From positions 8,016-72,015 of the IMG/VR virus record IMGVR_UViG_3300044647_001578: a DNA stretch of 64,000 nt; one strand, 5' to 3'. The notes beneath the pieces are model-generated. The model ran no database searches and was not told the DNA's origin. It worked only from the letters and a program-made list of their open reading frames with translations. The translations under genes were made by a program, and so were the position numbers. How positions within the stretch are numbered: position 1 is the stretch's first letter; every line of letters starts with the position of its first letter. Source of the stretch: a virus (Duplodnaviria; Caudoviricetes). Positions 29,561 through 61,577 of this stretch are shown piece by piece.

Positions 29561-29602
29561 ATGTTTCTCCCTTGTAGTTGATGGTATAAATCCATCTGTT
29601 TA

Positions 29603-30607: not shown

Positions 30608-30834
30608 GCCTTCTTCTTTCCTACGTAAGTGCCATAGAGTGTCATTAAGAACATCCATGTTGTGCCATCAAATTCTACCGAAAAGTTGGTGTCTATGTCA
30701 AGTACCCTAAGATACCCTTTGTCTCTCATCTGGTGCGTAAGCATGCTTTCATATTGATGCTTAATGCGAACCATATCAGAGTCATCTAAAAATTCAACTC
30801 TAACTTGGAATCTTTTTATCGGTTTGTGATTCAT
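30544..30834 (-). CDS. hypothetical protein
   Basis: ORF between helicase and primase. Confidence 0.65.
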   Translation of the reverse strand: MNHKPIKRFQVRVEFLDDSDMVRIKHQYESMLTHQMRDKGYLRVLDIDTNFSVEFDGTTWMFLMTLYGTYVGKKKAWRHEAITQGKLIPRNTLSNI

Positions 30835-33170: not shown

Positions 33171-33301
33171 TTTCCGAAAGCACTCGTTTCTTTATTGCAC
33201 ATCCAGCGTTTGCCGCACATGATACAGAATAATTCCATATGTAGTTTTTGAGAAAACACTCTGTCTACAAAAACTCTTCCATTACATTTCCCGCACCACA
33301 T
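33116..33301 (-). CDS. Zn-ribbon protein
   Basis: CGKC...CIMCG. Confidence 0.7.
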   Translation of the reverse strand: MWCGKCNGRVFVDRVFSQKLHMELFCIMCGKRWMCNKETSAFGKWLESKETANQKAYGISS

Positions 33302-42000: not shown

Positions 42001-42599
42001 CCATTATAGATTGTTGTTTCGACCCCGTCCTTATTTGTTGCTTTTAGGTTCCATTCTGTTGGAGTTGAGTGTGATGTTTCAAACTTAACAACTATTTTAT
42101 TAGCCGCCGCTGTTTTTAAAATTGGGTACTCTACAGTTAATATGCAATTGGTTAGAGATGTATCTCCTGTTGGGCTAAGCACTACAGATGGGGATACCCA
42201 ATATTTATATGGCAGCTGCATGCTTGAAAAGTATAATCTTTTGTTAAAAGAACTTGACGATGCATATGACTGCTTTGACCCTATTCCACTTTCTAAGTTT
42301 GCCCTTACGCTTCTGTCTCCGTCAATGATATACTGAATGCCAGCCAGCTTTGGTCTTCTTGGATCTATTATGCTGGTTATTGGAAATAGCTTTTCAAATG
42401 GTCTATAAGTATTTCCATAAGCATCTGTTTTTGTTACCTGAAGATCACCAGAAGGATTTGCGGCTGTTCCATTTGGGCCACGCATAGTAACGCCATCAAT
42501 TAAATCATTCATGTTATATTCTACAAAGCACCCATTAGTCATTTTAAATGACTGTGACGTGTTTAAATATCCAAGTAGGCCTGGTGATCCTGTAATCAT
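39081..42599 (-). CDS. large minor tail (tail tip/hub) protein
   Basis: 1172 aa after tape measure; INPLLQVGDVIEI C-terminal motif. Confidence 0.75.
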   Translation of the reverse strand: MITGSPGLLGYLNTSQSFKMTNGCFVEYNMNDLIDGVTMRGPNGTAANPSGDLQVTKTDAYGNTYRPFEKLFPITSIIDPRRPKLAGIQYIIDGDRSVRANLESGIGSKQSYASSSSFNKRLYFSSMQLPYKYWVSPSVVLSPTGDTSLTNCILTVEYPILKTAAANKIVVKFETSHSTPTEWNLKATNKDGVETTIYNGTSAGIVNGVINIYYNGLPTWTTVEADLDTQKSIDIHKLKLEVKKISVPISTKPDTSTAPKLGFLGMVELSARYVIDIGERVESFNISANSSDKVDGIVPVGDVTANSMRISVNAYDKGYENYDKINSFNKNKINLYKNVILKPYVRVDMEIVKLGTFYIDSYSVDEFGLVDIMSLDGARELQYIKPPDIVTSDMSSVAIIRRLLDSIGFTNYQFNLSDSDTSTITPFHWYTNKEKTVWQHIQDLCKDTQTVAIFDHNDILQFYPRDKIFAKDNPIRASFRYSPKYSGSVTNLANIASLSIDNVPSVKAIKVLYSPQLSSSYLVNADNLYTSPVVTLGAAALTDTLLPVAPKWNEDKPELYAKDGVIRLQPVVISGQEKQFYSFTGYLVVEKEIIEYDAILYEYIPIGGEASESKWITSEADIQKYQGLAQPNTFKPTGVYRIKARNVFEVVKPTDTASLTHNVNTDSLANEWEGRKWTSAEGTFSNVDQSIFKLTETEVKRDEKGNPIKNKDNLLNSIPRSMMTINAPLHTEKTNEDPSKPNIIVPNTVYSLVTTKEDAKFLGDVTPTSNNSFAIGTNMYFPLLVDEVSQKATGNQKTISGIAFALSPDNKSGYMLTIGTSQNATVDKNYRDVNFYKITAGKPIKMTTSQKETDGTIITNINGGELYRIDIKANWSIPANGTKKALALKISINNAVIAVIDTDPINITEKIGLLSLQGVSAFDYVYTTSIAKEEFLSKDEYSLYKGFVGGASSVIKTFGDFIFNKGETIATVSWLKEFGPVARELRRIKARYTTPGFPRYTQLVNNEDVTIVGASLDPFTMDTFVLNNTGAFTSLANGEEKQFIVVGDFITPSDQFEYINPDLTDEDKKEQVAFDSTWIQREDEAKALAKWMTDQWSKQQKVLSLQTFINPLLQVGDVIEISYPENKIYSTEDVGIPTGYAASKFVILSLDNTYDSTSPPTTSIVCRSIYTG

Positions 42600-43285
42600 T
42601 AAACTTCTTCCAGTGCTATAGATACATCCCAGAATTCTTGCGCCTCTGGCAGAACCGTAACGGCAGATGCCGTTGATGAGGCAGGTGTTCCAGATATAGT
42701 TCCTGCAACAGTAAATGATGTTGGAGTTGCTGCGGTGATAGTAAATACTCCGTTATATGCTGCAAATGTTGCTCCAGATACGCTAATCTTATTTCCAACT
42801 GCAAAACTATTTCTACCAGTATATGTTGTTACTCCAGCAGCATACGATATAGCGGTTATGTTTGAATTTTTAAATACTCCACCCGTTTTTAAATTTCTTC
42901 TTGTAACAGTAAAACTACAAGATGTGAATGACATCATCATTGTTTTTTCTCTTGAGGCGGTTCCGTTTGGAGAAACTTTTACATTAAATGCACCTTGACC
43001 AGCAACTGACTCATAGAACTCTTTAATGTTCATAGCCCCCCAGGCTCCATCTACAGTCATAGAAGAATATGTTGGTAAGCCTATCCAACTAACTGAAAGA
43101 ATGTCTTTATCAGCAATAAATATCTTTCTTAATGTTCCATTTGACATTCTCTGGGTTTTTTCAATTCTCTGTATATCCAATGTAGCGCTTGCTCTATTGT
43201 GCTCGCTTAATGCCTGCCAGACTACAGGGGTAACCGATGTGTTTTCAAATTTTATAAGGGATCCAAGCGGAAGGGTTAGCGCCAT
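42599..43285 (-). CDS. distal-tail-like protein with inserted beta domain
   Basis: Directly follows tape measure; RMSNGTLRK; inserted SFAVGNKISVSG...YNGVFTITA. Confidence 0.6.
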   Translation of the reverse strand: MALTLPLGSLIKFENTSVTPVVWQALSEHNRASATLDIQRIEKTQRMSNGTLRKIFIADKDILSVSWIGLPTYSSMTVDGAWGAMNIKEFYESVAGQGAFNVKVSPNGTASREKTMMMSFTSCSFTVTRRNLKTGGVFKNSNITAISYAAGVTTYTGRNSFAVGNKISVSGATFAAYNGVFTITAATPTSFTVAGTISGTPASSTASAVTVLPEAQEFWDVSIALEEV

Positions 43286-46200
43286 TATTTAACTCCTACT
43301 GTCATTGATGTGCCAGACATTTTAGAATTTCGGGAATCAAGAGTCTTGATTGCTGTGATAGTCTTCTGTGTTACTATATTTGACAATTGATTTATATCCC
43401 CATCGAATCCATTAATGTTATTTGTAATATTATATGTTGCTCCACCCATTGTAGCATTATTAGCGTTTGGATTAAAGGGGTTCATGTTAGCAGGAACAAC
43501 TGCTTCATTCTTATGAAGCATAGCAAGCATATCTACAGGAACACTATTTATTCCAGTTTCAAATTTAGGAATATTAAATTTACCTCCCTTTAAGTATCCT
43601 CCAGTTGCGCCCCTAACCATATCATCATCCATAAGATCTGAAATCTGAGCTATTTTTTCCATAAATTCTTTGTTAGAAATAGCGCCATTGGCATACTGAC
43701 CTATGATTGAGTCTCTCATTGCTTTTAAGTCATTCTCATTTGGATAAATTTTTCCACTTTGGTACTTTCCAAAACGTGTCCACATCAAAAGTGCATCTAA
43801 GGCTTTTTGAGTAGTGCTAATTCCAGGACCAATTTCTCCTATTGATGTTCTGTACGTATTAAGAATAGAGGTAAACGGATTGCTTCCTGAGCTTCTGGCC
43901 AACATGTCTATGTCACTAGAATTATGACCACCATCAAACCTTACTCCAAGCTTAGCTGCCAGTTCCATTATTGTTTCTTGATTTAAAGATTGATGCTCTC
44001 CGCCTACGGCGTATGAGTACGGTTGATCTATTCCAATTTGTTTTTTTGCTTTATCAATTGCTAATATTTGCAAAGCTCTTTGAGCGCTTTGACCTGCATC
44101 TCCCTCATAAGGATTTCTTGCTGGGGCATAGAAATCTTGATCTCCGTACATTCTTACATGATCTGGGTCAGATTTTTTAGCAGCGTCAAATTGTTCTATC
44201 GGCCTTAAGTTTTTATTTTCATTAACTTCTTTTAATATTTCATCAAGCTCTCTTTGAGAGTATTTTTCTTTTGACAAATAAAATATTTCTTTTGTTGAAG
44301 GGTTTTCTGTAATTACTGGAAGAGGCTCTCCGTCTTTGTGTAGCCCAAGCTCTTTTAATTTTGAAATGTAAGCAGATTCTTCTAATGGAAAAACTGAGCT
44401 AAGCTGTCCTTCTTTTTTGCTGTAATGGAATGGCTTTCCGAATCCTTGCAAGAAATAGCTGTCTGCCGAATGCAGCTGCTCTGGCTTTCCATTGTATTTC
44501 ATTAAATTAGAAAGTGTACTTACAATAAATGGCTTATCTGGTTTCCATGCACCCTGCATATGAGACTGAACTGCATCATAAATTCCAAAGTGTCTTGATG
44601 TTCTAGCTATGGAATGTGAGGCAGCGTCATCGGTTCCAGCAACGGAACCCTTTGGCCCTACAAATCTATCAAATATTTTAAATCCTGCAGCTGTTTCAAA
44701 AAGATCTCCTTGTCCGTCTGTTCTTGGAAACTCATCATTAAACACTCTTATCATTGGAATATCGTCTGGCGTCGTAGGAATATAGTGTGGTTCCATTCCT
44801 CGTGCTCTGTAGGCTGCAATCTCTGCTCTAGTTAAAGGTTCTTCTCCACGATTTCCAAAGAATCCACCTCGTAGGCCGCCATTGTATTCAGTTCTTGCAT
44901 CTGCTGCTATTTTTGCTAATCTAGCTTTTTCTGCATACTCTTCAGCCATTCTAGAAAGTATTGGTGCCATGGCTTTTGTTTTAGATTTAATAGCAATGGA
45001 GTCTTTTGCATTTCCCTTCATTGCAGAAATTAATTGAATAAGCCCTTCTGAGCTTGAAGAGTTTGTTATAGCGTATGGGTCAACATTTTTTAAATTCACA
45101 TTACCTGCTGCTAGCATATTCATTAAAAATTCTTTTACGTCTCTATCGCCCCATTGATATCCTGAATTTATTTTGTCCAGCAGGTCTTGAGCTTTTTTGT
45201 TTGAAGGATCTTTTTTCAAAACATAGGACAGTATTCCCTCTGGGGTTGTAGGTATAACAGCAGAAACCTGATGATTTGTTAACAATGAACTTAAGTTTTC
45301 ATCTATTCCTTGGAATACAACAGCATCATTTCCAAAAGGTCCTCCTGAATGAAGTGGTACGCTCATTCCTTCATGTAATACATATGGAGGGTAAACGTTA
45401 TTTGGTTTAAACTGCTCTGCAGTAACTTTTACTTTTGGCTTTTGTATTGTTGGAGCTAGCTTGCTTTCAACAAATGGTCTTGCTCCGCCAATTACTGCAG
45501 CAGTTGCTGCGTTTGTTGCAAGCTTTGATCCTGCTGCTCCAAGGAATGGGAATGAGCCCTTTGGCAATAAAGCGCCAAGCCCTGGTATTCCTTTTGAAAT
45601 TCCCAACTGCTCAATAAATGCTCTTCCGAATGCAGTTGATACAGTACCAGTTAATCCTGCAGTTAATAAATTTAGTCCGCCAGTTATCCATTCACCTTTC
45701 TTAAAATCTTTACCTGTACTGTTCATCTTTGAAGCATTTGGACCAAAGGTCAATGTTAATATCTTACTGGTTATGTCGTCGTAAATTGCACCAGTGCCAC
45801 CTCCATTTTGAAATAGGCCTTTCCAGTTTGAGGCTGTTGTGTACTTTTCCCATTGAGAAGGACCTTTTTTAGTCCATTCTCCATTTTTATTTTTATAGTA
45901 ATCAGGATTTTTCTCATACAGCTTATCCATTGCTTTATCGGTTGCTGCTTGCTTTTGTGGAGTCATTGCGCTCATTGTGACTTCATGAGAACCATCAGCT
46001 CTATGTGGGTGTACTGCTCCACCCTTATGGAATTTTCCAGGAATCTTTAAGTCTAATAATGACTTTACATTTCTTTCAAGTACACTACGAAGTACCTTGA
46101 GTTGGCCCTCATCAGTTATTCCGCTCTTAGTTAAGATATCATCTATAAATTTTTCTGGACCCTGCTTTGCTATTGACTTTCTTACAGAAGCAAATCCCTT

Positions 46201-49200
46201 AGTAAATTGAGAAGCTTGTTTTCCAACTAAAGTGCTGCCAGCCTTTAATGCTGTTTCAGCTGGGTTGGTTAAACTATCTATCATTCCCCAGTCAAATGCT
46301 CCAAGAGTTTTTTTGCCCTTAAGCAGTAGGTTTCCTGGATGCATGTCTCCGTGGCCTAGTATAGATGAAACTGCTCTCATCTTTCCAAAGCTCTTCATTG
46401 AAGCATTGGCTTTAAGCCAATCCATGTCAAGCGCTCCATGTGGCAACATTGCACCAGCATCTTCTAGTGTTTTCATTCCCTTTGATGCAAAGTCTTTACT
46501 TAATATGACAGATAAATTTTTCCAACTGCCCAAGATGTTGTCAGTACTTGGCATTTTAAATCTTTTAGCTATTGTAGACCCAGTTACTTCAAATGCACCT
46601 TCCATTACATCCTGCATAATCTTCATGTAATGTACAGATCCATCGGCTGCCTGCATTATAGACGGCCTTGACTTTCCTTTTGTAGACTTTCCTATATTCA
46701 TCAGGTCATCAAAATTACCAGCCTTTAATTTTTGTCCAACTTTAATTGCTTGTAATGCTTTAGGAATTGATTTTAGTACAAGACCAACGCCCTTGGCTAT
46801 CGGTCCGCCTGCAAACGTTGATCCTATGCTTGTGTAGTCGTTCCATTTTCCTTCGCCTGCGTATATATTAGTCGCAGACTGCTGAAGGTACTTGCCAAAA
46901 AGTTCATATAATATTGGGCCGCCAGGATTCGTGTGTTTCATAACTGGTGTCATTGTATTAGAGAATGAATGCACAAGGTTAGACCAATCAGATCTCTTGC
47001 TTGGATCTGAAACTTCTCCTGGTTCTAAGAACTTAAGCCAATTAGTGCCTCCAGAATTTCCAGCACTTGAAGTATTCCCAAGATTCATACCTTGCTCTTC
47101 ACGGTATTGATCTACTGTCTTATACTTACTCTTAGTCTTTGGCAGATTTCTTCCGTGACGATGACCCACTTCGCCACCTGTGTGGAATCCAATAGCCTTT
47201 TTAACTTTCTTAAATAGCTTGCCCCAGTCAATAACAGACTCCATAGATCCGCCAGAAACTAATGTACCATTTGGACCAATGCTTCCGCCGCCTTCTATTT
47301 TGCCTTTACTTAAAAAGGTTTCATGTTTTTCTGGAACAAACTCTGGATAAATTGTTTTATATTTATCTGGTAAGAATAGCTCTGCTCTTCTGTTTCTGGC
47401 TCTGTTCTCAGCAGTTGTATTTGGAACAAGAGGTCTGTACTCCCCGTATCCCACTGGCGTAAATGCTGTACCAGGAACAAACTTTGACATATATTCTGCA
47501 ATAGCATTTGCTCTATTTTGTGAAAGGATCTTGTTGTCTTTTCCTTTACCTACAGAGTCTGTGTGTCCTTGAACAACTATTGATGCCAGCTTATGTTTAA
47601 TAAGATCTTTAGCGATTGCCTGAAGTTCTAGTCTTTGTTCTTTATTTAATGTGTAAGAGTTTGTAGCAAAATTAGCTGTAATAGGCGGAACTTCAATTTT
47701 AATTATTTGCTTATTAGCATCTTGCCATGCTTCTATAGGGCCCATTAGCTTTCCGCCCTGCATGTTTACATTTATATTTGATCCGCCAGTTCCAAATGAG
47801 CTATTATGCTTAGATTGAGGAGTTGGATTTATTGGACCGCCCGCTGCATACTTGCCAGCATTTAATGCATCAAATGTTTCTACTCCGTATTTAGAAACCG
47901 AGTCCGCTTTAATTACATATTCGCCATTTGAAAGATAAGCTGGAATAGAATCTGATGTTGCAGTTCCTGCTCCCCTAATATGTCCACCATCTGCTCTGTT
48001 ATACGGGTTACCAGTTCTTTCTATGCTTCCATTATCTCTAACTTTAAAGGTAGAAATCTTTCCGTCTTTGTCTGTTACAGAGAAAAATTCACCAGGATTT
48101 ACCCCTCTTTCTTTTGCAAGTGCCTCAAGTCTCTGGCTTATTCCCATCGGGCCCCAGTCTTTTCTAGCATTACCATAGCTCTCTAAAGAAGCTCCTGGTA
48201 TAGTTGTTGTACCTGTTCCAGCTTTCCCAAGATTGTATGGGTCTGACCTAGTGCCGCTTCCAGAGTCTGGACCAATATTTAATCTTTTGCCGTCAATATT
48301 TATAATCACATTTCCGTTAACATCAATTGTACTTAATGCACCAAGCTTGCCTTCAAGGCTAGCAACCATTGCAGCGCCTAAGTCTAGATCTTTTAATCCA
48401 TTAAGTTTAACTCCAGCCTTTTCTGCTGCGTCAGCAACTGCTGCAAGCATCTTCTTTGACTGTTCGCCCGTCCTCCAAGCTTGTCTTTCTGCTTCTGGCT
48501 TCTTTAGCAATTCTATTTGCCAGTTAAGCATCGCAGTATTTACTTCTGAAATTGCACTTTCAGTATCGGTAATTTTGCCACTTAGATCCCCAAGCTTTTC
48601 TCCTGCTAATTGAGCATTGTCTGAGATTCCTTGCTGCTTGCTCTGTATGGCTTCAATTAGTTTTTGAAGTGGAACATTCTTTAGAATATTTGAATCTTCA
48701 ATTGATTTTTTCTGTGCGTTATATTGAAGCTCACTCTGGTATCCTTGTATATCAAGGCTTGCTTGTTGAGCACCAGCAATGTTTCCAGTTGCAAGTGCGG
48801 CATCATATTCTGCCTGCTTCTTTGCAATCTCTCTTCCTATATCGCCTTCTTGCTTTGCTGCGTCTAGCGCCTTAAGTCTTGCATCTGCAAGCTTATTGTT
48901 TGCATCTATTTGTTTTTGAAGTGAAGCAATCTTATCTCTATCTGATATTTGATCTGCTACAGATTGTCCTCTTGCTGCCTTTTGATATTTTGTCTGAAGC
49001 TGCAACATTCTGTCTAGATCAGCATATTGCTTTTTCAATACGCCTTCTCTGTTAGCAGATTCAACTTTTTTACCTAAAGATATCTGAAGGTTATAAAGAT
49101 CGTTTGTCTGCTCTGCGTTAAGGGCCCTTAAGTCTCCAGTGTATCCCTTAACTTGAATTCTTGTTTTTTGCCATAAAGATAAAGCAGTTTCTTGCTCGTT

Positions 49201-52200
49201 AACAATTTGTCTAATTGATGGGTCAATTTTTGCCATCTCATCAACGACCTCTTTGGTTAAGTAAACTTGATTTTCAACTTGGCTATTAATTTCGTCAATA
49301 GCAATTTTTTCTTGATCAAGCATTAATTGCTTTTCTTGACCACTTGAAAAGTATGTTCCATCCTTAGCTGCTTTTTTACGTGCTTCCTTTAAAGCTTTTG
49401 CTTGTCTAGACTCGACATCCGTAGACAAAGCCATCATTGCAGTATTTAGCTGATTTGCTTGTTCTGTTGCATCACGGTTAGTTGCCATTGCGGTAGTCAA
49501 ACTATCAATTGCAGATGCTGCAGCAGACGCTGTATCCTTTATGTCATTAAATCCTTGTGAACGAACTGTGTAGGCTGCGGCATTTGCTGATTGGTCTGAT
49601 AATGCGTACATAGTGTATATCTTTTTAGCCGCATCTTCTGCTGACATGCCCATAGCGATCAATTGTTCTTTAAGTCTTATGGCAAGCTCTCTCTGTTTTT
49701 CTGGGTCTTCGTTGCCCGTTTGATTAATTAAAGCTACTTGATCAGAATAATTAGTTTTAACTTCTTTTTTTAACTTCTTGTATTCTTCAATAGTTATATC
49801 TAGTGGGGTTCCAGATCCTTGCATGCTTTCGTATAAAAGGGTATTTCTTTCTTTTAATGCCTTTGCATTATTGATTGCTTCTTTTATTTTGTCATTAAAG
49901 TTTGTAAACTTAAGGCCTGCTTTTTCTGCAGCTTCTGCAGTCATTCCATAACCTAATGCGTTTAGTCTAAGGGCCTCTTTGTGAGCCTGCCACCTATCGT
50001 AACCATATTTGGCTATTGCAGCACCTGCTCCAACAGCAAGATTAAATCTAGTAAATATGCTTAATGATATTCCAAGTGCTTTGCTGAAAAGATTTGAGCT
50101 TCCAGTTAGCTTGCTTAGCATTGTTCCATATTTAGTTAGCTGCGGAGCACCCGTAATTTTGTTAGCTCCAACTGCACCTATTGGAGTTCTTGCTTGTATA
50201 AATTTATTACCCATAATGCTTGTGCCTTTTCCTGCACCTGCATTCATCATGCTTCCCATAGCCAAGAATGGAAGGATTGATCCAACTTGTTTAATTACAT
50301 CTCCTTGGGTTCCGCCAACTTTATCGCCAGCATAATTTGCACCTTGCTGTATTCCAAAAAATAATAATAGCTGCTTTAGCATTGGGACTATTCCACCAAG
50401 CCTAAAGCCATTTGGAATAGATCCGCCAGCTTTATATCCATTTGGAATTATTCCACCAGCATTTCTTGGAACAAATAGTTCTGGCCCCTTCTCTCCAACA
50501 ATGTATGGCTGGCCTGCATTAACTGGTCCGCCCTTTTCTCTTCCCTCTAGCTTAAATATTAATTGTTTTAATGCATCTGTAATTGAAGTATCTTTTTTAG
50601 ATTCCCAATTTGCAAACTTCTTTCTAAGTATTTCTCTATCTATTTGAGAAAGAACTTTTCGTCCAAGAGGATCGGACAAAGTTGAAGATGCAGCAGACCT
50701 TATTACTGTATCCATAATATCTGGCTCTAATGCTTTTATTAGCTGGCCTTTTGCATTTTTTGTATAGCCGTACGGCATTTCTTTTGCAAGTTCGCCTGCT
50801 AGCTTGTCGTAAAGAATTCTTTGAGTTCTCTTTGTTAGCCCTGTTGATGCAAAAAGCTTTTCAGCCATTCCAATTTCTAAAGAAGTAACTCCCCAACCAC
50901 CAGTTGAGTCTTTGCCAAATCCTGCTCCAATTCTGTGAAGCGCTTTGCCTTTTGTGATTGCTCCAATTAGTCCGCCTAATATAAATCCATTTTGTGGTGT
51001 TTTAAAAGCATTGTCGGAAAGGCTTACTGCATGTCCAGACTGCCTACGCTTTAGCTCATCTGCTGCAAGCATTTTAGCAATTGCTGCGGGAGTCATTGTT
51101 TTTTCTGGAGACATTGTTACTGATGAATGAACTCCGTGCAAGTCCTGATAGGTTTTTCTTCTTGCATCAGATAGTCTTTCAATCATTGCATTGTAAATAA
51201 CTTTTTCTTCTGCGGTTAAATCAGGGAATCTTGCAACAGTTTGCTTTAGTTTAGGCAAAGCTTCATTAATTTCTTTAAGCATTCGATCATTGTATTGATC
51301 TGCTGTCATCCCTTTTGGAATATCTGAAGTTGCTTCAGCAAAGAATTTTTTTGTGCTGCTTCCCTTTACTCCTAGCAAGTTAACCATTGCTTGGTGTTTA
51401 AAAGAAGGCATGATTGCTGAATAATCTCTAAGGCCAGATGCTGTAGAAAAAACTCCAGCTGGGCCGACGTCTCCCAAAACATTTCCAGAAAGGTTTCCTC
51501 TTCCTAAATCTTTATCTCCACGCAAGGCAGAAGCAACTAGCTGTCTGAAGTACTGGTCGTTTGTAAATTTAGAGTCTGTTGATGCAAATCTTGGATCATA
51601 CTCAGACTCTAGTGCAAGAAGTTTTCTTTTTCCAGCAGGGTCTGTTGGGTCTTTAATTACAACAATTTTTTGTTTTGGTGCATGAAGCCCATGAACTTCA
51701 CGAGCAATTTGTGTTGCTCTCATTTCAGCTAAAGCTGCTTTTTCATCTAATACTGGCTTTACGAATACCTTGCTTCCATCTTTTGAATAAATACCACCAA
51801 TGCCTGCAACTGGAAAGCTTCTTCCTGTTGTAGGAGAAAGTATTTCTCCATATTCAGTAACTTGCTTTTTTGAAAATCTAGAATCTTTGACTGCTTGATC
51901 TGCTTTTACCATTGCAGTTTTTGCTGCTCTTTGGGCTTCTACTTGTTTAATGGATCTTGGCATTCCAAGGAATACTGTTCCTCCTGGGAACAATCTTTGT
52001 GCCATTGGAACCTGGCCGCCATCATTTAATCCTATGTTTTCGCCAATTTCTCCACCAGCGTTTCTTCTTGCAATAATTTTAAGTGCGTGACTTACTCCAC
52101 TAGATGTAGTTAGGAGTGTGGCTAAATTAGTGCCTTTAGCCCAAGAGGGTAGCCTAGAACCTATTGTTCTATTTTCACTTACCCAGGTTAGTCTGCCATC

Positions 52201-55200
52201 TTTTCTTTTAACTATCTGGCCTTTTTGAATTGAGTTATTAGGCTTTCCTGTTATTAGTCCACGAGCTATGGCTTCATCTTTAGTTAAAACCTCTTTAGCT
52301 CTTTCAGTAAATACTTGAGATATAGCAGAAAATAAATTTCTTCTTCCGCCAGCTTTTGATGGGTCAATCCTAATTCCACGCAAAGCAGGCTTAAATATTT
52401 CTTTAGCAAGTCTTTCAAAACCAAACGGGTCGAGCTTGCCGCCGATCATCCTGCTTGCATTTTCTGGAAGTTCTAATTTACGAATCAATTCTTTAAGCGC
52501 TGCTGAGTTTCTTCTTTCTGCTTGAACCGCATCCCCACCTAGTGTGACTGCTGCTTCATTCATTAAGCTGTTCGGATTCATTCCAGAATCTAAGGTTGCT
52601 CTTATTAAGCTTGCTATGTAACTTCCAGTTAAACCTTTTCCATTAGAATTTACTCCAAGATTTAATTCTCTTGGAAGTAGCAATGCCATTCCGCTTAAGT
52701 CTTCTGTAATATGTGTTCTTTGTAACGCTAGCTTTTTAGGATTTCCTAAACCGCCTCCACCGTTTCTTCCAAGACCAGATGTATTTCCTGGTCCGCCGTT
52801 TAGCTCGTACATTAAAGGCATATTTCTTTGTGCAATGTGCGCTGGTATTACTGCTTCTCCAGGTGTTAATACAACTGGGACCTGACCACCTTCTTGTGCA
52901 TAATAAGATTTGCCTCCAAGAATATTTGTTATTAACGGTAGATGCTTTTCAGTAGCAGCTTTATTGATTACAAATGATCCAGGCTCAGCTGTTGTATGGT
53001 ATGTATCTGTGTTGCCAGTTCCTGGAACAAAACCACCTTTTGCAAACTTTGGCTTTGTTGTTTCTATGTTGTATCCAGCACCAGAAGTTCTTACCCCGCC
53101 AAGAGCTCTTGCGATTCTATCAACCATTGCTTTTGTAGGTCCTTTATGGAACATCTCTTTCATATTAGACTTTCCTGTAGCTGGATCTACTACTGGCTGA
53201 GAGGTTAGTGGTACTGTTCCTAGGTTTGCTGTTCTGCCCATTCCCGCTGCAGTTAGTCTTGTTGTTTCTGCAAGCATTGCTTCTACTGTTGCATTTAATG
53301 AAATAATTCTTGCTCTAGCTTGTTCTACTGTTATTTTACTTTGCTGAACTTGCTGAACAATTGCTGCAGTTTCTTTTGCTGCAAGGTCTGTTATCTGGCT
53401 AAACTCTGGCAACAATGCTTGGTAAGAATCAGATAAGCTTGATGTAACAGTTCCTGTTGCCATCACTTCCGCCTTTAGTATCTTAAGCTCTGCTTCAGAT
53501 TGCATAGCAATAGCGGCTGTCATTGCATGCCATTTTGCAGCTTCTGCTGCAACAATTCCTGTGGAGGTTCCTCCTATTGATGTTAGTCCAGGGATTTTTG
53601 GTAGATCGCTGTCCATATAAGCCTGTGGATTTCTGCCAACTCTTATATTTACTGGCTTTGATCCTGGTACTGTTCCAAATATTGTTCCTGCTTGTGGATT
53701 TCCAGATGGAATTAAGTGAGACATGTCTCTAGAATATGGTGCACCAACTAGTGGATTATTTTTATCTACCACTCTTCCAGCGGGTCCTGCTGCCATAATT
53801 ACTCCGCCTGCTACTGTTGATACTGCTGGCTGAACAGATACTTTGGCTGCATTTGCTTTTGCTTCTAGATTTATAAATGATTCTGCAAGTGTATTTACTG
53901 CATTAGATAAAACAATAGTTGCTTCTGTATCCGAGTAGAACGATGTTGCAAGACCTTTAGCAGCAGCATCTGCGGCTATGATCTCTGGTGTTAATAATTT
54001 AAATCCGTGCCCACCCTTTGCTAATTGTCTTAGATGGAATATTCCCTTGATTACATATCCAATAAAGTTGCCCATAACACCCGTCAACATAATAAGAGGT
54101 CCAGCAATTGCTGTGAAACCTCCTAATACATTTAATAATGTTTTAACTGGCTCTGGAAGCTTCTGGAAAAACTTTATAATTGCGTCGACAACTTTTAATA
54201 CCTTTGTGCTTATTCTTAAGAATTGCTCTCCTGCGCCAGCTAGGTCTGCTTGAACTGATGCCCAAGCTCTCTTGAACTGCCCAGAGGCTGATTCTGTCAT
54301 CATCTTTAATTCTCGATCTGAAATTGCTGCTAGTTCTGTTACGCTAGCCTTCATTAAGTCCATTACTTGAAGTGTTTGTGATCCAGACTTTCCTAGGTTT
54401 TCAAATAACGCCGACATTCTTGCAAACTGGAACTTACCAAATAGCTGTTCAATTGCTCTTGATTTATCTAGCGGATTAAGATTGTCTAGTGCGGCCTGCA
54501 ATGATAATATTGTTGCAGTTAGATCACCAGCATTATCATTTACAATACCCTTTAGATCAATTCCAAATCCCATAAACTGCTCTGTTGCAACTTTAGTTGG
54601 GTTAATAAGTGATGCCATCGCTGACTTAATTGCGTTTGCACCTTCTGATGCATTTACTCCGCCTTCTTTCATTGCAGTAAGGTAGAGCGCTAAATCTTTT
54701 ACATCTCCGCCAAGAGATTTAATTACTGGACCAGCTTTAGGAATTGCTTCAGTCAAATCTGCAAGGCTTGTTGATGTCTGGTTTTCAACTGCGTTGAGGA
54801 AGTCAATTGATTGTGCTAGTTCATCGGTGCTCTGCTTAAAGGCATTTTGAATTGCAAGAGTTGCTTTCATCGCATCTTGTCTATCAACTTCACCAAGCAC
54901 GGCAAGTCTTGTTGTTTGCTGCGTAGCGGCAATTAAATCATTACCCTGTTGTCCTGTTGCTGCTAAGTCTGCAGCGAGTGCGATTGTTTCTTTATAGGCA
55001 ACACCATAAGAGCCAGCAATTTCTCTAGCTGTTGCAGTAACATCTTTTCTTACCTGTGCCAGATCTGCAGATGAAGTTGCTGCAAGCCCTCCATAAACTT
55101 TTGTTAATCTTACTAATTCTGCGTCTGCTTCTCTGAATGCTTTTTGTGCTGCCGCTCCGAACATAACCAAAGGAACAGTTAGTCCTACTGTAAGCTGGCG

Positions 55201-55749
55201 ACCAGCCCATTGGGTATTTTTACCCCAGTTAATAAGACCTGTTGATCCGTCAAGCATTACCTTGTTCATTATTGCGGCTTCTTGTCGAGCAATAGCCATC
55301 TTGTTCTTTATTTCATCAAGACCTTTTGCAACCATGACATTGTATTGCATTTGTCCTTGTGCATTTTTGCCTACAGGTTGAACTATAGCCTGTTGCAGCA
55401 TTACCTGCTGCTTAGCTAAGTCTCTAATTAAATTGCTTGTCTTCTTTGTATGGCCGCTCCAAGCATTATAATAATCGTTGAGCTTGAGGCGACCTCTATC
55501 TAAGTTCTTTCCGAACTTGTCTACGTCTGATGATAGGGATACAAAGTGTTGCGAGAACTGTCCTGTTGATGTTAGCGTTGTTGCAAACGACTTGTTCATC
55601 ACAGCAATTTGATTTGCTAGTTTTGCGTTTGTTCCCGCTGTTGTTTCTTGCAGTTTTATGAGTTGGGCAGTAACCGCAGCTAGCTGAGCTCTTAAGCTCG
55701 TAAAGTCTGCGTGGGCGGTAATATTGGTCGTTATTATATTATCTGCCAT
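43285..55749 (-). CDS. giant tape measure protein with kinase-like and OmpA-like cargo domains
   Basis: Follows tail chaperones; N-terminal tape-measure core; lambda gpH-type FAxGG motifs; DLxxxN...DxG and DMHPGN...FDWG kinase motifs; GHTD...RNRR OmpA motif. Confidence 0.92.
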   Translation of the reverse strand: MADNIITTNITAHADFTSLRAQLAAVTAQLIKLQETTAGTNAKLANQIAVMNKSFATTLTSTGQFSQHFVSLSSDVDKFGKNLDRGRLKLNDYYNAWSGHTKKTSNLIRDLAKQQVMLQQAIVQPVGKNAQGQMQYNVMVAKGLDEIKNKMAIARQEAAIMNKVMLDGSTGLINWGKNTQWAGRQLTVGLTVPLVMFGAAAQKAFREADAELVRLTKVYGGLAATSSADLAQVRKDVTATAREIAGSYGVAYKETIALAADLAATGQQGNDLIAATQQTTRLAVLGEVDRQDAMKATLAIQNAFKQSTDELAQSIDFLNAVENQTSTSLADLTEAIPKAGPVIKSLGGDVKDLALYLTAMKEGGVNASEGANAIKSAMASLINPTKVATEQFMGFGIDLKGIVNDNAGDLTATILSLQAALDNLNPLDKSRAIEQLFGKFQFARMSALFENLGKSGSQTLQVMDLMKASVTELAAISDRELKMMTESASGQFKRAWASVQADLAGAGEQFLRISTKVLKVVDAIIKFFQKLPEPVKTLLNVLGGFTAIAGPLIMLTGVMGNFIGYVIKGIFHLRQLAKGGHGFKLLTPEIIAADAAAKGLATSFYSDTEATIVLSNAVNTLAESFINLEAKANAAKVSVQPAVSTVAGGVIMAAGPAGRVVDKNNPLVGAPYSRDMSHLIPSGNPQAGTIFGTVPGSKPVNIRVGRNPQAYMDSDLPKIPGLTSIGGTSTGIVAAEAAKWHAMTAAIAMQSEAELKILKAEVMATGTVTSSLSDSYQALLPEFSQITDLAAKETAAIVQQVQQSKITVEQARARIISLNATVEAMLAETTRLTAAGMGRTANLGTVPLTSQPVVDPATGKSNMKEMFHKGPTKAMVDRIARALGGVRTSGAGYNIETTKPKFAKGGFVPGTGNTDTYHTTAEPGSFVINKAATEKHLPLITNILGGKSYYAQEGGQVPVVLTPGEAVIPAHIAQRNMPLMYELNGGPGNTSGLGRNGGGGLGNPKKLALQRTHITEDLSGMALLLPRELNLGVNSNGKGLTGSYIASLIRATLDSGMNPNSLMNEAAVTLGGDAVQAERRNSAALKELIRKLELPENASRMIGGKLDPFGFERLAKEIFKPALRGIRIDPSKAGGRRNLFSAISQVFTERAKEVLTKDEAIARGLITGKPNNSIQKGQIVKRKDGRLTWVSENRTIGSRLPSWAKGTNLATLLTTSSGVSHALKIIARRNAGGEIGENIGLNDGGQVPMAQRLFPGGTVFLGMPRSIKQVEAQRAAKTAMVKADQAVKDSRFSKKQVTEYGEILSPTTGRSFPVAGIGGIYSKDGSKVFVKPVLDEKAALAEMRATQIAREVHGLHAPKQKIVVIKDPTDPAGKRKLLALESEYDPRFASTDSKFTNDQYFRQLVASALRGDKDLGRGNLSGNVLGDVGPAGVFSTASGLRDYSAIMPSFKHQAMVNLLGVKGSSTKKFFAEATSDIPKGMTADQYNDRMLKEINEALPKLKQTVARFPDLTAEEKVIYNAMIERLSDARRKTYQDLHGVHSSVTMSPEKTMTPAAIAKMLAADELKRRQSGHAVSLSDNAFKTPQNGFILGGLIGAITKGKALHRIGAGFGKDSTGGWGVTSLEIGMAEKLFASTGLTKRTQRILYDKLAGELAKEMPYGYTKNAKGQLIKALEPDIMDTVIRSAASSTLSDPLGRKVLSQIDREILRKKFANWESKKDTSITDALKQLIFKLEGREKGGPVNAGQPYIVGEKGPELFVPRNAGGIIPNGYKAGGSIPNGFRLGGIVPMLKQLLLFFGIQQGANYAGDKVGGTQGDVIKQVGSILPFLAMGSMMNAGAGKGTSIMGNKFIQARTPIGAVGANKITGAPQLTKYGTMLSKLTGSSNLFSKALGISLSIFTRFNLAVGAGAAIAKYGYDRWQAHKEALRLNALGYGMTAEAAEKAGLKFTNFNDKIKEAINNAKALKERNTLLYESMQGSGTPLDITIEEYKKLKKEVKTNYSDQVALINQTGNEDPEKQRELAIRLKEQLIAMGMSAEDAAKKIYTMYALSDQSANAAAYTVRSQGFNDIKDTASAAASAIDSLTTAMATNRDATEQANQLNTAMMALSTDVESRQAKALKEARKKAAKDGTYFSSGQEKQLMLDQEKIAIDEINSQVENQVYLTKEVVDEMAKIDPSIRQIVNEQETALSLWQKTRIQVKGYTGDLRALNAEQTNDLYNLQISLGKKVESANREGVLKKQYADLDRMLQLQTKYQKAARGQSVADQISDRDKIASLQKQIDANNKLADARLKALDAAKQEGDIGREIAKKQAEYDAALATGNIAGAQQASLDIQGYQSELQYNAQKKSIEDSNILKNVPLQKLIEAIQSKQQGISDNAQLAGEKLGDLSGKITDTESAISEVNTAMLNWQIELLKKPEAERQAWRTGEQSKKMLAAVADAAEKAGVKLNGLKDLDLGAAMVASLEGKLGALSTIDVNGNVIINIDGKRLNIGPDSGSGTRSDPYNLGKAGTGTTTIPGASLESYGNARKDWGPMGISQRLEALAKERGVNPGEFFSVTDKDGKISTFKVRDNGSIERTGNPYNRADGGHIRGAGTATSDSIPAYLSNGEYVIKADSVSKYGVETFDALNAGKYAAGGPINPTPQSKHNSSFGTGGSNINVNMQGGKLMGPIEAWQDANKQIIKIEVPPITANFATNSYTLNKEQRLELQAIAKDLIKHKLASIVVQGHTDSVGKGKDNKILSQNRANAIAEYMSKFVPGTAFTPVGYGEYRPLVPNTTAENRARNRRAELFLPDKYKTIYPEFVPEKHETFLSKGKIEGGGSIGPNGTLVSGGSMESVIDWGKLFKKVKKAIGFHTGGEVGHRHGRNLPKTKSKYKTVDQYREEQGMNLGNTSSAGNSGGTNWLKFLEPGEVSDPSKRSDWSNLVHSFSNTMTPVMKHTNPGGPILYELFGKYLQQSATNIYAGEGKWNDYTSIGSTFAGGPIAKGVGLVLKSIPKALQAIKVGQKLKAGNFDDLMNIGKSTKGKSRPSIMQAADGSVHYMKIMQDVMEGAFEVTGSTIAKRFKMPSTDNILGSWKNLSVILSKDFASKGMKTLEDAGAMLPHGALDMDWLKANASMKSFGKMRAVSSILGHGDMHPGNLLLKGKKTLGAFDWGMIDSLTNPAETALKAGSTLVGKQASQFTKGFASVRKSIAKQGPEKFIDDILTKSGITDEGQLKVLRSVLERNVKSLLDLKIPGKFHKGGAVHPHRADGSHEVTMSAMTPQKQAATDKAMDKLYEKNPDYYKNKNGEWTKKGPSQWEKYTTASNWKGLFQNGGGTGAIYDDITSKILTLTFGPNASKMNSTGKDFKKGEWITGGLNLLTAGLTGTVSTAFGRAFIEQLGISKGIPGLGALLPKGSFPFLGAAGSKLATNAATAAVIGGARPFVESKLAPTIQKPKVKVTAEQFKPNNVYPPYVLHEGMSVPLHSGGPFGNDAVVFQGIDENLSSLLTNHQVSAVIPTTPEGILSYVLKKDPSNKKAQDLLDKINSGYQWGDRDVKEFLMNMLAAGNVNLKNVDPYAITNSSSSEGLIQLISAMKGNAKDSIAIKSKTKAMAPILSRMAEEYAEKARLAKIAADARTEYNGGLRGGFFGNRGEEPLTRAEIAAYRARGMEPHYIPTTPDDIPMIRVFNDEFPRTDGQGDLFETAAGFKIFDRFVGPKGSVAGTDDAASHSIARTSRHFGIYDAVQSHMQGAWKPDKPFIVSTLSNLMKYNGKPEQLHSADSYFLQGFGKPFHYSKKEGQLSSVFPLEESAYISKLKELGLHKDGEPLPVITENPSTKEIFYLSKEKYSQRELDEILKEVNENKNLRPIEQFDAAKKSDPDHVRMYGDQDFYAPARNPYEGDAGQSAQRALQILAIDKAKKQIGIDQPYSYAVGGEHQSLNQETIMELAAKLGVRFDGGHNSSDIDMLARSSGSNPFTSILNTYRTSIGEIGPGISTTQKALDALLMWTRFGKYQSGKIYPNENDLKAMRDSIIGQYANGAISNKEFMEKIAQISDLMDDDMVRGATGGYLKGGKFNIPKFETGINSVPVDMLAMLHKNEAVVPANMNPFNPNANNATMGGATYNITNNINGFDGDINQLSNIVTQKTITAIKTLDSRNSKMSGTSMTVGVK

Positions 55750-55758
55750 ATATATATG

Positions 55759-56127
55759 TTACTCTATAGAGTATCCTAATCCTGCTCCGATGCCAAATCC
55801 AGCTTCTGCTGCAAAACCACCTTGTAATGAAACAACATCATCTGCTGATGCTCCTATACCAAGTGCTCTTCTTCTAACATCTTCGAAGGTTGATCCCTCC
55901 CCATTTTGATTACTGCTTTCATTTAATTCAACACCCTGAATTAAAGCTAAGAACTTTCTTTTCTCTTCTTCAGTTTTTTGCATTGACTTAAAAGTCTGGA
56001 CCATCTCTGGCATTGAAAGACTATCTTCTAGTTCTTCGTAATTTTTCCAATTACCTAAAAGAAATACTTCCCCTTCTAAGGCGGCTAAATCTAGTTCTGA
56101 CCAGCCAGTACTGTTGCCGCTAGTAGG
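55759..56127 (-). CDS. tail assembly chaperone C-terminal (T) frame, reached by -1 frameshift
   Basis: -1 frame open from the slippery site C-CCA-AAC (56127-56133) into the 55759..56013 ORF. Confidence 0.8.
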   Translation of the reverse strand, partial: PTSGNSTGWSELDLAALEGEVFLLGNWKNYEELEDSLSMPEMVQTFKSMQKTEEEKRKFLALIQGVELNESSNQNGEGSTFEDVRRRALGIGASADDVVSLQGGFAAEAGFGIGAGLGYSIE

Positions 56128-56423
56128 TTTGGGTCGTCCATCTTAATTCCTCCGCATACTTCAAGAATGCGATTGATTGTTGGAACGTCAAGTGTGTCTT
56201 CAAATGCGTCAATATCTTTAACTAGCTCTGGGAGTTGCTTTTCTAAAGCCACTGCACATGCTTCAATTAAAATTGTTAGTGTTTCGTCTTCTGATGTTAC
56301 TTCTGCTGTCTTTTGAATGACTATCATAAACTTACGAAGCTCTTTAATTGTTAAAGGCTTAAGTTTAACTGTTGCGCCATTTTGTAGTTGAATCTCTTCA
56401 ACGTCGTATACTGTAGTTGCCAA
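56091..56423 (-). CDS. tail assembly chaperone (G)
   Basis: Between major tail and tape measure; GGAGG SD; slippery heptamer near 3' end. Confidence 0.85.
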   Translation of the reverse strand: MATTVYDVEEIQLQNGATVKLKPLTIKELRKFMIVIQKTAEVTSEDETLTILIEACAVALEKQLPELVKDIDAFEDTLDVPTINRILEVCGGIKMDDPNLLAATVLAGQN

Positions 56424-60527: not shown

Positions 60528-61577
60528 TTAAGAAGCAACCTTAACGTTCTTTACAACGACCCAAGCGTCTGCCTGCTCGATTTGAACGCCAACACGAGTA
60601 TACATTGTGTACTCGATTGTGTCCTTGCGTGGCTGGAAGAAGCGGTAAACAGTTACATCACGCTTGATACCAATAACTACGTTATTTGGGAATGTCAAGT
60701 GGACGTCTCCGTGTGAACCTGATGGGCTTGCGTATGTACCTGTCTGTGTCTCAGGAAGCAATGGAACTTCAACGATTGGAATACCAAATGCGTATGGAGC
60801 TACATATCCTGCTGGACCTCCAAGAACAGGAACATCACCACGGATAATGCCAGAGGCAATATCTTGTGGAGTAACGTTCTGAATGTTCTGTGAGTTAGAG
60901 AACAAGTAATCTTGGATCAAGTTTGATCCAGAAAGGAAGCGAAGGTCTGTACGACGTTGCTTGTACTTACGTGGCATTGCCTTAAGAGCCTTGTTGAAGA
61001 TCTCACGGGAAATTCCCGCACCTGCTGCATCTACTACACGACCATGTGTCTTTGCCTTCTTAACTGCACCGTCAAATGACTTGTACAGAGCATCGGCTGA
61101 AAGTGATGTGTCACCGTTAAGAATAAGATCTTCGATGTCATTTCCAGCTTGTGTTGCCATCATACGTGCAATATGATCTTCAAGATCTGCACCTTCGATG
61201 TTGTCTTCTAGAGACTCAGTTGAAAGTTCCCAGTCCATGCGGAGCTTCTTTGTTGTGAGAGAGATCTTTGAGAATGTTACACCCTGGTTTACAGCTGTGT
61301 TTTCTCCTTCGGATGCAAGCTTTACAAGCTTTTCTCCTACTGACATGCGATCAATTTCTGTTGTGTCGGATTTCATACGAACCGTACGTGCAACCTTACC
61401 AATTACGGTAGCATCGAACATATAGTCCAAGAATCTTGCTGATTGTTCTGGGTTTAGAAGTCCACCGTTGCCATTTTCTGAAGCAACATGAACGCCTGAA
61501 CCACCTGTTGAAGAACCGAACCCAGTTGATACTGTTGTACCAGCTGCTGCGGCCTTTTCTAATAATTCATTACTCAT
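60528..61577 (-). CDS. major capsid protein (HK97 fold)
   Basis: GGLLNPEQSARF, LSTESLEDNIEG, DIEDLILNGD, FGIPIVEVP; follows protease/scaffold. Confidence 0.92.
   Translation of the reverse strand: MSNELLEKAAAAGTTVSTGFGSSTGGSGVHVASENGNGGLLNPEQSARFLDYMFDATVIGKVARTVRMKSDTTEIDRMSVGEKLVKLASEGENTAVNQGVTFSKISLTTKKLRMDWELSTESLEDNIEGADLEDHIARMMATQAGNDIEDLILNGDTSLSADALYKSFDGAVKKAKTHGRVVDAAGAGISREIFNKALKAMPRKYKQRRTDLRFLSGSNLIQDYLFSNSQNIQNVTPQDIASGIIRGDVPVLGGPAGYVAPYAFGIPIVEVPLLPETQTGTYASPSGSHGDVHLTFPNNVVIGIKRDVTVYRFFQPRKDTIEYTMYTRVGVQIEQADAWVVVKNVKVAS

Follow-up and report, generated by a model that had tools for sequence, protein, structure and literature searches.

A 64,000-nucleotide stretch of viral DNA (the window; positions 8,016 to 72,015 of the IMG/VR record IMGVR_UViG_3300044647_001578, Caudoviricetes) carries a gene for an unusually built tape measure protein (TMP) of 4154 amino acids (aa). 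We found that this protein consists of a TMP scaffold with two slots and breakpoint-enriched joints, and that it carries modules under purifying selection, a putative wall-binding domain and two kinase-type signatures. TMPs fill the tail lumen, their C-terminus lying at the tip, and are the first to leave at infection. The cargo known from TMPs is a single wall hydrolase or, in one example, an RNA polymerase. The protein is a mosaic TMP with two cassette slots, and we consider it fairly probable that the modules of this protein are carried in the tail to the host.

Scaffold and slots of the tape measure protein

The protein shows the features expected of a TMP. PhageMin_Tail (PF10145) matched aa 239-438 (E 7.9e-26, 91.6 bits vs a Pfam gathering cut-off of 33.2), and tape measure families from PHROGs covered aa 13-842, the best of them being phrog_10030 (aa 109-842, E 1.3e-114). 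Gene position, hydrophobic segments, long helical stretches and a GG...GE[FY]V unit are further TMP features. The parts of the gene are as follows (S1 to S7b are segment names).

43285-55749 (-): whole tape measure gene; single open frame, 4154 aa, with PF10145 and TMP PHROGs
53110-55749 (-): conserved TMP core, aa 1-880; includes PF10145 (54436-55035) and a hydrophobic segment
54037-54147 (-): hydrophobic segment in the TMP core, aa 535-571, from hydropathy
52750-53109 (-): junction cluster 1, aa 881-1000 (FAKGG, AQEGG, NGG, RNGGGG), from motifs
52057-52749 (-): S1, slot 1 module, aa 1001-1231; no Pfam or PADLOC match
51982-52056 (-): junction cluster 2, aa 1232-1256 (RNAGG, LNDGG, LFPGG), from motifs
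50977-51981 (-): S2, kinase-like module 1, aa 1257-1591, from candidate catalytic-type residues
50533-50973 (-): S3, conserved helical module, aa 1593-1739; no Pfam or PADLOC match
50383-50532 (-): junction cluster 3, aa 1740-1789 (REKGG-PVNAGQPYIVGEKGPELFVP, RNAGG, YKAGG, FRLGG), from motifs
48310-50382 (-): second ruler-like part, aa 1790-2480, from hydropathy and composition
48004-48309 (-): S4, variable small segment, aa 2481-2582; no Pfam match
47827-48003 (-): canonical TMP C-terminal unit, aa 2583-2641 (RADGG-HIRGAGTATSDSIPAYLSNGEYVIK...KYAAGG); phrog_25241, phrog_23013
47179-47826 (-): S5, OmpA/MotB-like, putative peptidoglycan-binding module, aa 2642-2857; PF00691
46774-47175 (-): S6a, Gly-rich, variable, linker-like segment after FHTGG, aa 2859-2992; different alleles among relatives
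46024-46773 (-): S6b, core of kinase-like module 2, aa 2993-3242 (VHYMK, EGAFE, LGHGDMHPGN, AFDWG)
45400-46020 (-): S7a, partly hydrophobic, Gly-rich, variable segment after FHKGG, aa 3244-3450
43603-45399 (-): S7b, alpha/beta module(s) of about 600 aa, aa 3451-4049; no known family; conserved core at aa ~3708-3848
43288-43602 (-): conserved TMP C-terminal end, aa 4050-4154 (GATGG, YLKGG...LHKNEAVVPAN...NITNNINGFDGDINQLS)

A search with aa 880-4154 (E<=1e-3) gave at least 216 relatives among 1442 scored, and the best 120 of these (2289-4190 aa, many from contigs of 104-119 kb) were examined. Among the relatives mapped, aa 1-1000 were kept in essentially all and aa 1250-2640 in nearly all. Over the TMP core (aa 1-880), identity was 70% or higher in almost every one of the 120, and the ratio of nonsynonymous to synonymous substitution rates (dN/dS) was 0.03-0.06. 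The second ruler-like part, in which a Gly-rich hydrophobic stretch (aa 1790-1920) precedes a helix-former-rich, Gly- and Pro-poor one (aa 1921-2480), was also kept across the family (dN/dS 0.07-0.13). TMP PHROGs matched at aa 2583-2655, and the canonical unit, which the family hidden Markov model (HMM) scored at 108.6 bits, matched in tblastn annotated TMPs of Gordonia, Mycobacterium, Rhodococcus, Burkholderia and other phages as well as unannotated or hypothetical open reading frames (ORFs) of Vibrio and other phages. The C-terminal end (aa 4050-4154) was kept in relatives both with and without cargo.

Two places differed between relatives of 2650-4270 aa. In slot 1 (aa ~1000-1240), 21 of 117 relatives carried the module type of the query, and in 96 of 117 it was replaced by modules of 190-300 aa from at least four further unrelated classes; between the classes, at least five in all, no relation was detectable (hhalign probability <=1.2%). 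In slot 2 (after aa ~2640), 60 of 107 relatives pass to the conserved C-terminal end with hardly any intervening sequence and hold only 100-250 aa after aa 2560, whereas 47 of 107 hold 400-1600 aa of varied sequence there. The short forms read ...KF[AS]FGG-MVNMPRYETGG-... followed by the C-terminal end, and because of this sequence the cargo of the long forms is seen to be inserted between successive [FY]xxGG motifs.

We picture the scaffold as composed of the N-terminal TMP core, a kinase-like module, the hydrophobic stretch with the second helical ruler, the GG...GEYVI unit and the C-terminal end. Slot 1 always contains one module of about 200-300 aa, taken from at least five unrelated classes. 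Slot 2 starts after the [FY]xxGG motif at aa 2637, reaches to that of aa 4055 and has no cargo in about half of the relatives; in the protein studied here it contains the OmpA-like domain, a linker, the kinase-like core, a second linker and the 600-aa alpha/beta module.

The original prediction, which was made from the letters of this DNA, had described a TMP with non-ruler modules inserted between ruler parts. The family homology blocks bear this out and agree with the module coordinates that had been proposed (aa 1000-1226, 1253-1586, 1593-1735, 2638-2853, 2860-3238 and 3245-4045). The modules had also been regarded as swappable cargo. Relatives do gain, lose and replace modules, but kinase-like module 1 is a near-universal core part (119 of 120 relatives); only P0074 is without it and has aa 1256 joined to aa 1568. 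We class S2 as part of the conserved core of the family and not as swappable cargo.

In principle, such a gene might be an artefact of assembly or gene calling (a chimeric contig or fused ORFs), and the sequence does come from a metagenome-derived virus record (72 kb, estimated to be 67% complete). However, the identical 4154-aa product was found on three contigs (P0002), and full-length relatives with 61-86% identity (61% for P0003) show the same order of parts on independent contigs, as single open frames of 3719-4268 aa. We regard the chance of an artefact as negligible.

More distant proteins carry related parts. Fourteen distant giant proteins (P0145-type and others) have one or more slot-2 modules in common with the window, and 11 of the 14 carry PF10145. 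LysM, CHAP, OmpA and APH-like (E 1.4e-4) matches occur once each among them, which indicates that kinase-like and wall-directed modules recur in other TMP lineages. When 13 close and 14 distant giant TMPs were searched for Pfam cargo beyond PF10145, we obtained OmpA (4+1), LysM (1), CHAP (1) and weak ABC1/APH matches (1+1). Five variable stretches of relatives (four C-terminal tails and one replaced middle region) and two short S2-like matches gave nothing significant in Pfam. The TMP ORFs of the IMG/VR loci L038-L042 (3719-3746 aa) have a core 61% and a coil 28% identical to those of the window; they are without S1-S3 and carry in that place about 750 aa of other sequence with no Pfam match.

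Gly-Gly joints and breakpoints

The original prediction had listed 17 xxxGG motifs, and all of them are present at the junctions for which they were named: FAKGG (aa 905), AQEGG (954), RNGGG (997), RNAGG (1232 and 1765), LNDGG (1244), LFPGG (1256), FILGG (1592), REKGG (1740), YKAGG (1775), FRLGG (1785), RADGG (2588), YAAGG (2637), FHTGG (2858), FHKGG (3243), GATGG (4050) and YLKGG (4055). GG dipeptides as such were mildly enriched in the protein (53 vs 39.4 +/- 5.7 in 1000 shuffles, maximum 58). Enrichment of [FY]xxGG was strong (11 vs 2.2 +/- 1.5), with none of 2000 shuffles reaching 11, and in 121 of 121 family proteins examined this motif stood above the shuffled mean (mean 6.1 vs 1.4). The consensus of the joint appears to be roughly [KG]-[FY]-x-x-G-G-x-[VI].

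Breakpoints between relatives concentrate at these joints. The 377 internal ends of BLAST high-scoring segment pairs (HSPs) fell into 37 clusters, of which 13 lay within 5 aa of a GG (our limit for proximity) compared with 5.1 expected (P=0.001), and when per-codon DNA identity between the window gene and six relatives fetched as DNA was segmented, 13 of 27 change-points lay within the same distance (background 13.7%, binomial P=1.8e-5); both P values overstate the number of events, because the relatives are not independent. The six largest clusters of HSP ends, with medians at aa 999 (96 ends), 1241 (92), 2661 (67), 4048 (26), 3240 (9) and 3474 (7), are all within 5 aa of a GG. The GG-near change-points are at aa 993, 1259, 1736, 1772, 1813, 2584, 2816, 2898, 3246, 3359, 3633, 4046 and 4059. 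At junction cluster 1, 96 HSP ends at aa 983-1015 accompany the change-point at aa 993, at junction cluster 2, 92 ends at aa 1219-1257 accompany that at aa 1259, and before the C-terminal end 26 ends cluster at aa 4024-4052. Junction cluster 3, with change-points at aa 1736 and 1772, is matched at aa 1726-1773 by phrog_30701 and the TMP family phrog_1538; within it, the element of aa 1740-1762 (GGPVNAGQPYIVGEKGPELFVP) has matches in separate PHROG families, of which one bears a TMP annotation.

Synonymous divergence (dS) changes abruptly along the gene, and within single pairs adjacent segments differ about tenfold. Against L030, dS was 0.13 for the core, 1.28 for S2, 0.16 for the coil, 0.09 for the OmpA-like module, 1.14 for S6a, 0.20 for S6b and 0.99 for S7b. 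The gene is thus a recent mosaic. S7b was 65% identical in the TMP of L038, the coil of which is 28% identical (61-65% for S7b across L038-L042), and its dS was lower than that of the rest of the L038-L042 gene, which indicates exchange of S7b between distant TMPs. A survey of mosaicism in phage proteins was unable to confirm any genuine recent case in TMPs (PMC10684548); cases of this kind occur at the present locus and in its relatives, where near-identical DNA adjoins segments saturated at synonymous sites. S6b was 90-94% identical to its counterparts in L030, L031, L033 and L034, and the adjoining S6a only 45-63%; the boundary between the two (aa ~2993-3001) is a clear change-point that is not at a GG.

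As to the nature of the joints, they had been suggested to act as a recombination signal. This did not hold: at the DNA level, the junctions contain only short imperfect repeats of 14-40 nt and no long repeat that could serve as such a signal. Nor are the junctions copies of the 59-aa canonical unit, the HMM of which finds aa 905-935 only at E 0.28 and aa 3238-3246 only at E 0.35; because of this poor recovery, the recurring element is a short joint and not the full unit. We read the joints as conserved flexible inter-domain linkers at which recombinants stay viable, and not as a site-specific recombination signal. The modules would behave as cassettes because recombinants that cross over at the joints stay functional.

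The joints resemble parts of the lambda TMP gpH. The gpH record carries KFHFATGG...GEFVF...GYATGG, and gpH shows weak local similarity to aa 861-935 (blastp E 0.005) and aa 2606-2650 (E 0.34). The canonical unit (aa 2583-2641) weakly resembles gpH 751-793, and junction cluster 1 holds GG...GE/GS-x-V-I-type elements weakly similar to gpH 686-765. As the original prediction had stated, gpH carries FATGG/YATGG motifs and is trimmed, the cut lying in its Gly-rich C-terminal region; neither the exact site nor the protease is known, and the trimmed product gpH* forms a periplasmic channel (PMC12617516).

This resemblance raises the question of a true polyprotein, in which the [FY]xxGG joints would be sites of a tail-maturation protease as in lambda gpH and the free proteins would be injected as separate effectors. 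The strong enrichment of [FY]xxGG and its location at module borders are consistent with such processing. The FATGG/YATGG motifs of gpH lie in the fragment released by cleavage (PMC12617516), and in T5 the cut in pb2 separates the hydrophobic stretch from the enzymatic domain, with the fragment staying in the tail (PMC10038345). Cutting would also resolve the presence of wall-acting and ATP-requiring modules on one chain. However, plain flexible linkers would equally give Gly-rich joints, copies of the motif also occur inside the scaffold, which must stay whole as a ruler (aa 905, 954 and 1740-1785), and no candidate protease was identified. Furthermore, the lambda site is not established and the T5 cut follows an Arg and not a GG (PMC12617516, PMC10038345), and the poor recovery of the other junctions by the canonical-unit HMM argues in the same direction. 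We consider a true polyprotein unlikely. An extended form of it, in which [FY]xxGG is the maturation site common with lambda gpH and the ruler of these widespread, uncultured and probably actinobacterial phages is a cassette polyprotein that is cut in the tail into a wall anchor, one or two kinases and a new-fold enzyme, injected ahead of the DNA, with the cassettes exchanged like polymorphic toxin modules, appears unlikely as well.

Properties of the modules

In kinase-like module 1 (S2), all 119 relatives compared keep K1331, E1342, D1412, K1413, D1414 and N1419, and 118 of the 119 keep D1427, which corresponds to a kinase-type pattern of Lys, Glu, D-x4-N loop and following Asp. The dN/dS of S2 was 0.13-0.16, and AlphaFold predicted an N-lobe-like strand/helix unit at a block-mean confidence (predicted local distance difference test, pLDDT) of 55-81. 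S2 had no Pfam match at E<=10, a profile search of the PDB gave nothing relevant, and the CotH HMM had no match in the genome at E<=10. Free-standing relatives of S2 amounted to only 17 matches, which all come from short contigs and are most probably fragments of TMPs.

In S6b, the catalytic signature (Lys, Glu, H-x-D-x-x-x-x-N loop, D-[FW]-G) is present in this order and identical in five of five aligned sequences. Pfam matches stayed below threshold for ABC1 (E 2.2e-4, 20.9 bits vs 22.9) and APH (E 4.7e-4, 20.4 vs 23.2) and far below cut-off for HipA_2 and PI3_PI4_kinase; all four kinase families belong to one clan. A PDB profile search returned the catalytic loop and DFG motif of a bacterial Ser/Thr kinase at E 0.06, and HipA_2 occurred on 7 of the 30 nearest Atlas clusters. 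The dN/dS was 0.09-0.21. S6b gave no match to Kinase-PolyVal.

The OmpA-like assignment of S5 was confirmed. The PF00691 core (aa 2694-2787, positions 47389-47670) was found at E 1.7e-18 with 67.2 bits vs a gathering cut-off of 27.2, and MotB-type PADLOC models matched down to E 1.1e-10. The module is present in 4 of 13 diverse relatives and has a dN/dS of 0.07-0.23. We regard its assignment as an OmpA-like domain as solid.

S7b was predicted by AlphaFold at pLDDT 80-95, and its core turns up again in numerous TMP-like and mid-sized proteins that have no Pfam family. When S6 and S7 were searched with HMMER against 1.84 billion representatives, 62 matches were obtained, almost all of them TMP-like or fragments, and none of the 10 mid-sized ones carries a Pfam family. 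The fold search gave no PDB match for S7b, which does not establish that its fold is new, because both models are multi-domain and single domains can be missed. A fold search in BFVD gave as best match an uncharacterised crAss-like phage protein (E 1.9e-3, TM 0.24). ADP-ribosyltransferase (ART) activity was considered for S7b and not adopted. Atlas neighbours with ART families scored only 0.76-0.78, a range that is often chance; ART-PolyVal and DUF3626 gave no match (the DUF3626 control also gave none), and no ART appeared among the fold-search rows. The conserved residues of S7b (R-x-S-x-H, S-H-x-x-G-x-W, N-G, D-T) do not form the R-S-E pattern of ADP-ribosyltransferases.

The remaining segments differ from each other in their constraint. 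S3 had a dN/dS of 0.09-0.12 and a block-mean pLDDT of about 47-78 for aa 1631-1720, and S4 was 45-53% identical beside 95% identical flanks in the pairs with L030 and L033. S1 (dN/dS 0.39-0.46, pLDDT <50), S6a (45-63% identity beside flanks of at least 90%, pLDDT <60) and S7a (dN/dS 0.17-0.54, mixed pLDDT) are Gly-rich or hydrophobic, fold poorly and as a group have a dN/dS of 0.17-0.54; for S7a, the match to P0019 and P0022 is limited to aa 3239-3446. These three look like linkers or membrane-active stretches and not like globular cargo. The six globular modules of the original prediction shrink accordingly: S7b folds confidently and S2, S3, S5, S6b and S7b are under purifying selection (dN/dS 0.07-0.34), but S1, S6a and S7a are linker-like.

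One might argue from the linker-like segments that the whole insert changes only the length of the tail or is a tolerated, hypervariable filler, and the lack of a Pfam family in most inserted modules of the relatives would fit this as well as the fast evolution, Gly content and poor folding of S1, S6a and S7a. In contrast, S5, S6b and S7b are under purifying selection, the OmpA domain lies above the Pfam cut-off, S7b has a high pLDDT, and S6b is nearly identical between TMPs with strongly diverged flanks. We consider a mere ruler extension or spacer highly improbable.

Proposed delivery to the host and relation to known systems

We infer the delivery of the slot-2 modules from established knowledge on TMPs. 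The modules would stay attached to or near the TMP in the tail, and the slot-2 string would leave the tail tip first, together with the TMP, at infection. The OmpA-like domain may then anchor in the wall, and the kinase-like and S7b modules may act in or at the cell, before or at DNA entry.

Several points weigh against a mosaic TMP with delivered cassettes. A kinase needs ATP and thus the cytoplasm, and the adjoining OmpA-like domain would act in the wall, so that a single polypeptide would have to reach across wall and cytoplasm unless it is cut. The tail lumen would need room for about 1400 additional residues in each of 3-6 chains, or else the tail would be longer. No Pfam gathering threshold is reached by either kinase-like module, and the kinase-like calls of the original prediction hold at the level of motifs and sub-threshold matches. 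In S6b, block-mean pLDDT was 28-48 in the first two thirds and 56-87 in the last third, with no confident strands (five near-identical sequences aligned), and S2 and S6b showed no detectable relation by blastp (E 1.2) and hhalign (probability 0.2%), comparisons of low power (number of effective sequences 1.4). The model of aa 1001-1790 had a mean pLDDT of 41.1 with shallow alignments, and a fold search with it gave only helical-hairpin rows. Confidence was low for S1, most of S2 and S6, and for this reason their discrete folds are only putative; in the proposed structural check, S7b was the part with a confident fold. Turnover of modules at GG motifs had likewise been proposed as a check. The main breakpoints are at GG, but 14 of 27 change-points lie outside the 5-aa limit, 12 of them at least 14 aa off and two (aa 2841 and 3310) 7 and 6 aa off; those beyond the limit include aa 1840, 1924, 2373-2493, 2884, 2996, 3271, 3384, 3607 and 4004. 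The non-independence of the relatives mentioned above belongs to the same list.

The slot-2 string might also serve only the assembly of the tail (tip docking, chaperoning or length checking) and then be removed without being delivered. This would dispose of the space problem in the lumen, and the cargo sits exactly in the region homologous to the trimmed part of lambda gpH. In lambda, the trimming of gpH follows the assembly of the tail, and of six gpHC copies only three are seen, so that the others may have been lost (PMC12617516). However, enzyme-like conservation, the OmpA domain and the wall hydrolases in the same slot of relatives make sense at infection and not in the producing cell, and half of the family assembles tails without slot-2 cargo. 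We consider a role confined to assembly improbable and keep to modules carried to the host.

Among cultured phages, the group of Jay2Jay (Streptomyces, cluster BE-type, NC_029098 gene 64) is nearest, with 31-34% identity in the TMP N-terminus. The Jay2Jay TMP is laid out like the one studied here, from the core through the hydrophobic stretch and the GG...GEF unit to a slot that ends in ...GG and the LHKNEAVL end, and the gene order around it is that of the window. It differs in its length of 2103 aa and in carrying in the equivalent slot a single classical cargo (Peptidase_M23, aa 1915-2013), with no kinase-like or OmpA module and no enrichment of [FY]xxGG (2 vs 0.9).

Comparison with better studied systems, as far as the accessible text of the cited papers goes, gave the following picture. 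Lambda gpH (cut to gpH* and gpHC) and T5 pb2 (cut to pb2* and pb2C) are TMPs cleaved near the C-terminus (PMC12617516, PMC10038345). After a cut behind R1127, the enzymatic domain pb2C remains in the tail tip until infection, when it is released (PMC10038345). In contrast to the 1400-aa module string found here, both have one C-terminal fragment of about 90-130 aa; that of lambda is without a known enzyme, and module turnover is not known to have been described for either. The 5002-aa TMP gp96 of the Thermus phage P23-45 carries a cytoplasm-acting virion RNA polymerase to the host, but this cargo is N-terminal and single, and no GG-delimited array or swapping is reported in the text available (PMC10770324). 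Since gp96 carries an RNA polymerase, TMP cargo need not be a wall hydrolase, and the statement of the original prediction that TMP cargoes are mostly wall hydrolases needs updating in this respect. Polyvalent proteins are giant, multi-domain and extensively mosaic, are thought to enter with the DNA, and include kinase, ADP-ribosyltransferase, peptidase and lysozyme domains (Iyer et al. 2017, PMC5512222). However, PF18762 (Kinase-PolyVal) and PF18760 (ART-PolyVal) had no match in this genome at E<=10, and the word tape does not occur in the accessible text of that paper, whereas here the tail ruler serves as the scaffold. In carrying enzymes, the protein would work as T5 pb2 and gp96 do, and its likeness to polyvalent proteins is one of concept and not of membership. 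The Sle1-type effectors of contractile injection systems in actinobacteria have a TMP-related modular scaffold with exchangeable C-terminal functional domains (PMC13277306). They belong to a bacterial phage-tail-like particle and are not the ruler of an infectious phage; a sequence relation was not found, no search having been aimed at one. In the literature searched (supplements and most subscription journals lay outside the search), we found no description of GG-delimited cassette arrays in TMPs. Lysins and RNA polymerase as TMP cargo were known before, as were polyvalent proteins; what is new is an array of several recombining cassettes, joined at Gly-Gly motifs, that includes kinase-like cargo.

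As to the origin of the window, no similar DNA was found in cultured phages, and tblastn against 50,697 phage records gave matches for two parts only, the N-terminal core (aa 6-675) and the canonical unit. The major capsid protein (60528-61577 (-)) is 55-60% identical to that of Streptomyces cluster-BE-type phages (about 131 kb), and the 1172-aa minor tail protein (39081-42599 (-)) matched only Streptomyces (127) and Rhodococcus (5) phage records. As part of the same fairly probable explanation, the source would be an uncultured siphophage of roughly 105-118 kb with Streptomyces cluster-BE-type phages as nearest cultured relatives. Because these phages hold the closest matches to the capsid protein, the TMP core and the minor tail protein, the host is probably an actinobacterium, despite the low G+C content of the window (35-45%, mostly 36-41%), and the OmpA-like domain is therefore no evidence for a Gram-negative host.

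Upstream of the TMP gene lie two small ORFs in chaperone position, an immunoglobulin-domain protein, head-tail genes and the major capsid protein gene; downstream follow a 228-aa ORF, the 1172-aa minor tail protein, further tail proteins and then replication genes. The two small ORFs directly 5' of the TMP gene (55759-56013 (-), 84 aa, and 56091-56423 (-), 110 aa) correspond to phrog_10474 and phrog_10504, families that carry no functional annotation, and occupy the position of G/GT-type tail assembly chaperones in other siphophages. Genes for a metallo-phosphoesterase, a DnaB-like helicase, a primase, SSB and a large DNA polymerase stand directly after the tail genes, all on the same strand (33301-34101 (-), 25353-32062 (-)). 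Positions 10001-12000 of the window are the sole 2-kb stretch with positive GC skew (+0.089); its G+C content is 0.449 vs about 0.35-0.415 elsewhere, and it overlaps an 893-aa ORF (9756-12437 (-)).

For the biology of these phages, the finding means that one ruler carries a string of at least five accessory parts and that close relatives differ by whole modules. The modules are a source of uncharacterised protein families, since S7b has no PDB match and most of them have no Pfam family. The motif common with lambda gpH is a testable candidate for the gpH processing site, and if the cassette-polyprotein reading were true, the tail lumen would be a programmable effector-delivery compartment and the lambda gpH cleavage signal would be identified. 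If the modules are delivered, ready-made kinase-like and other enzymes would be in the host before gene expression, which would be relevant to host takeover and counter-defence.

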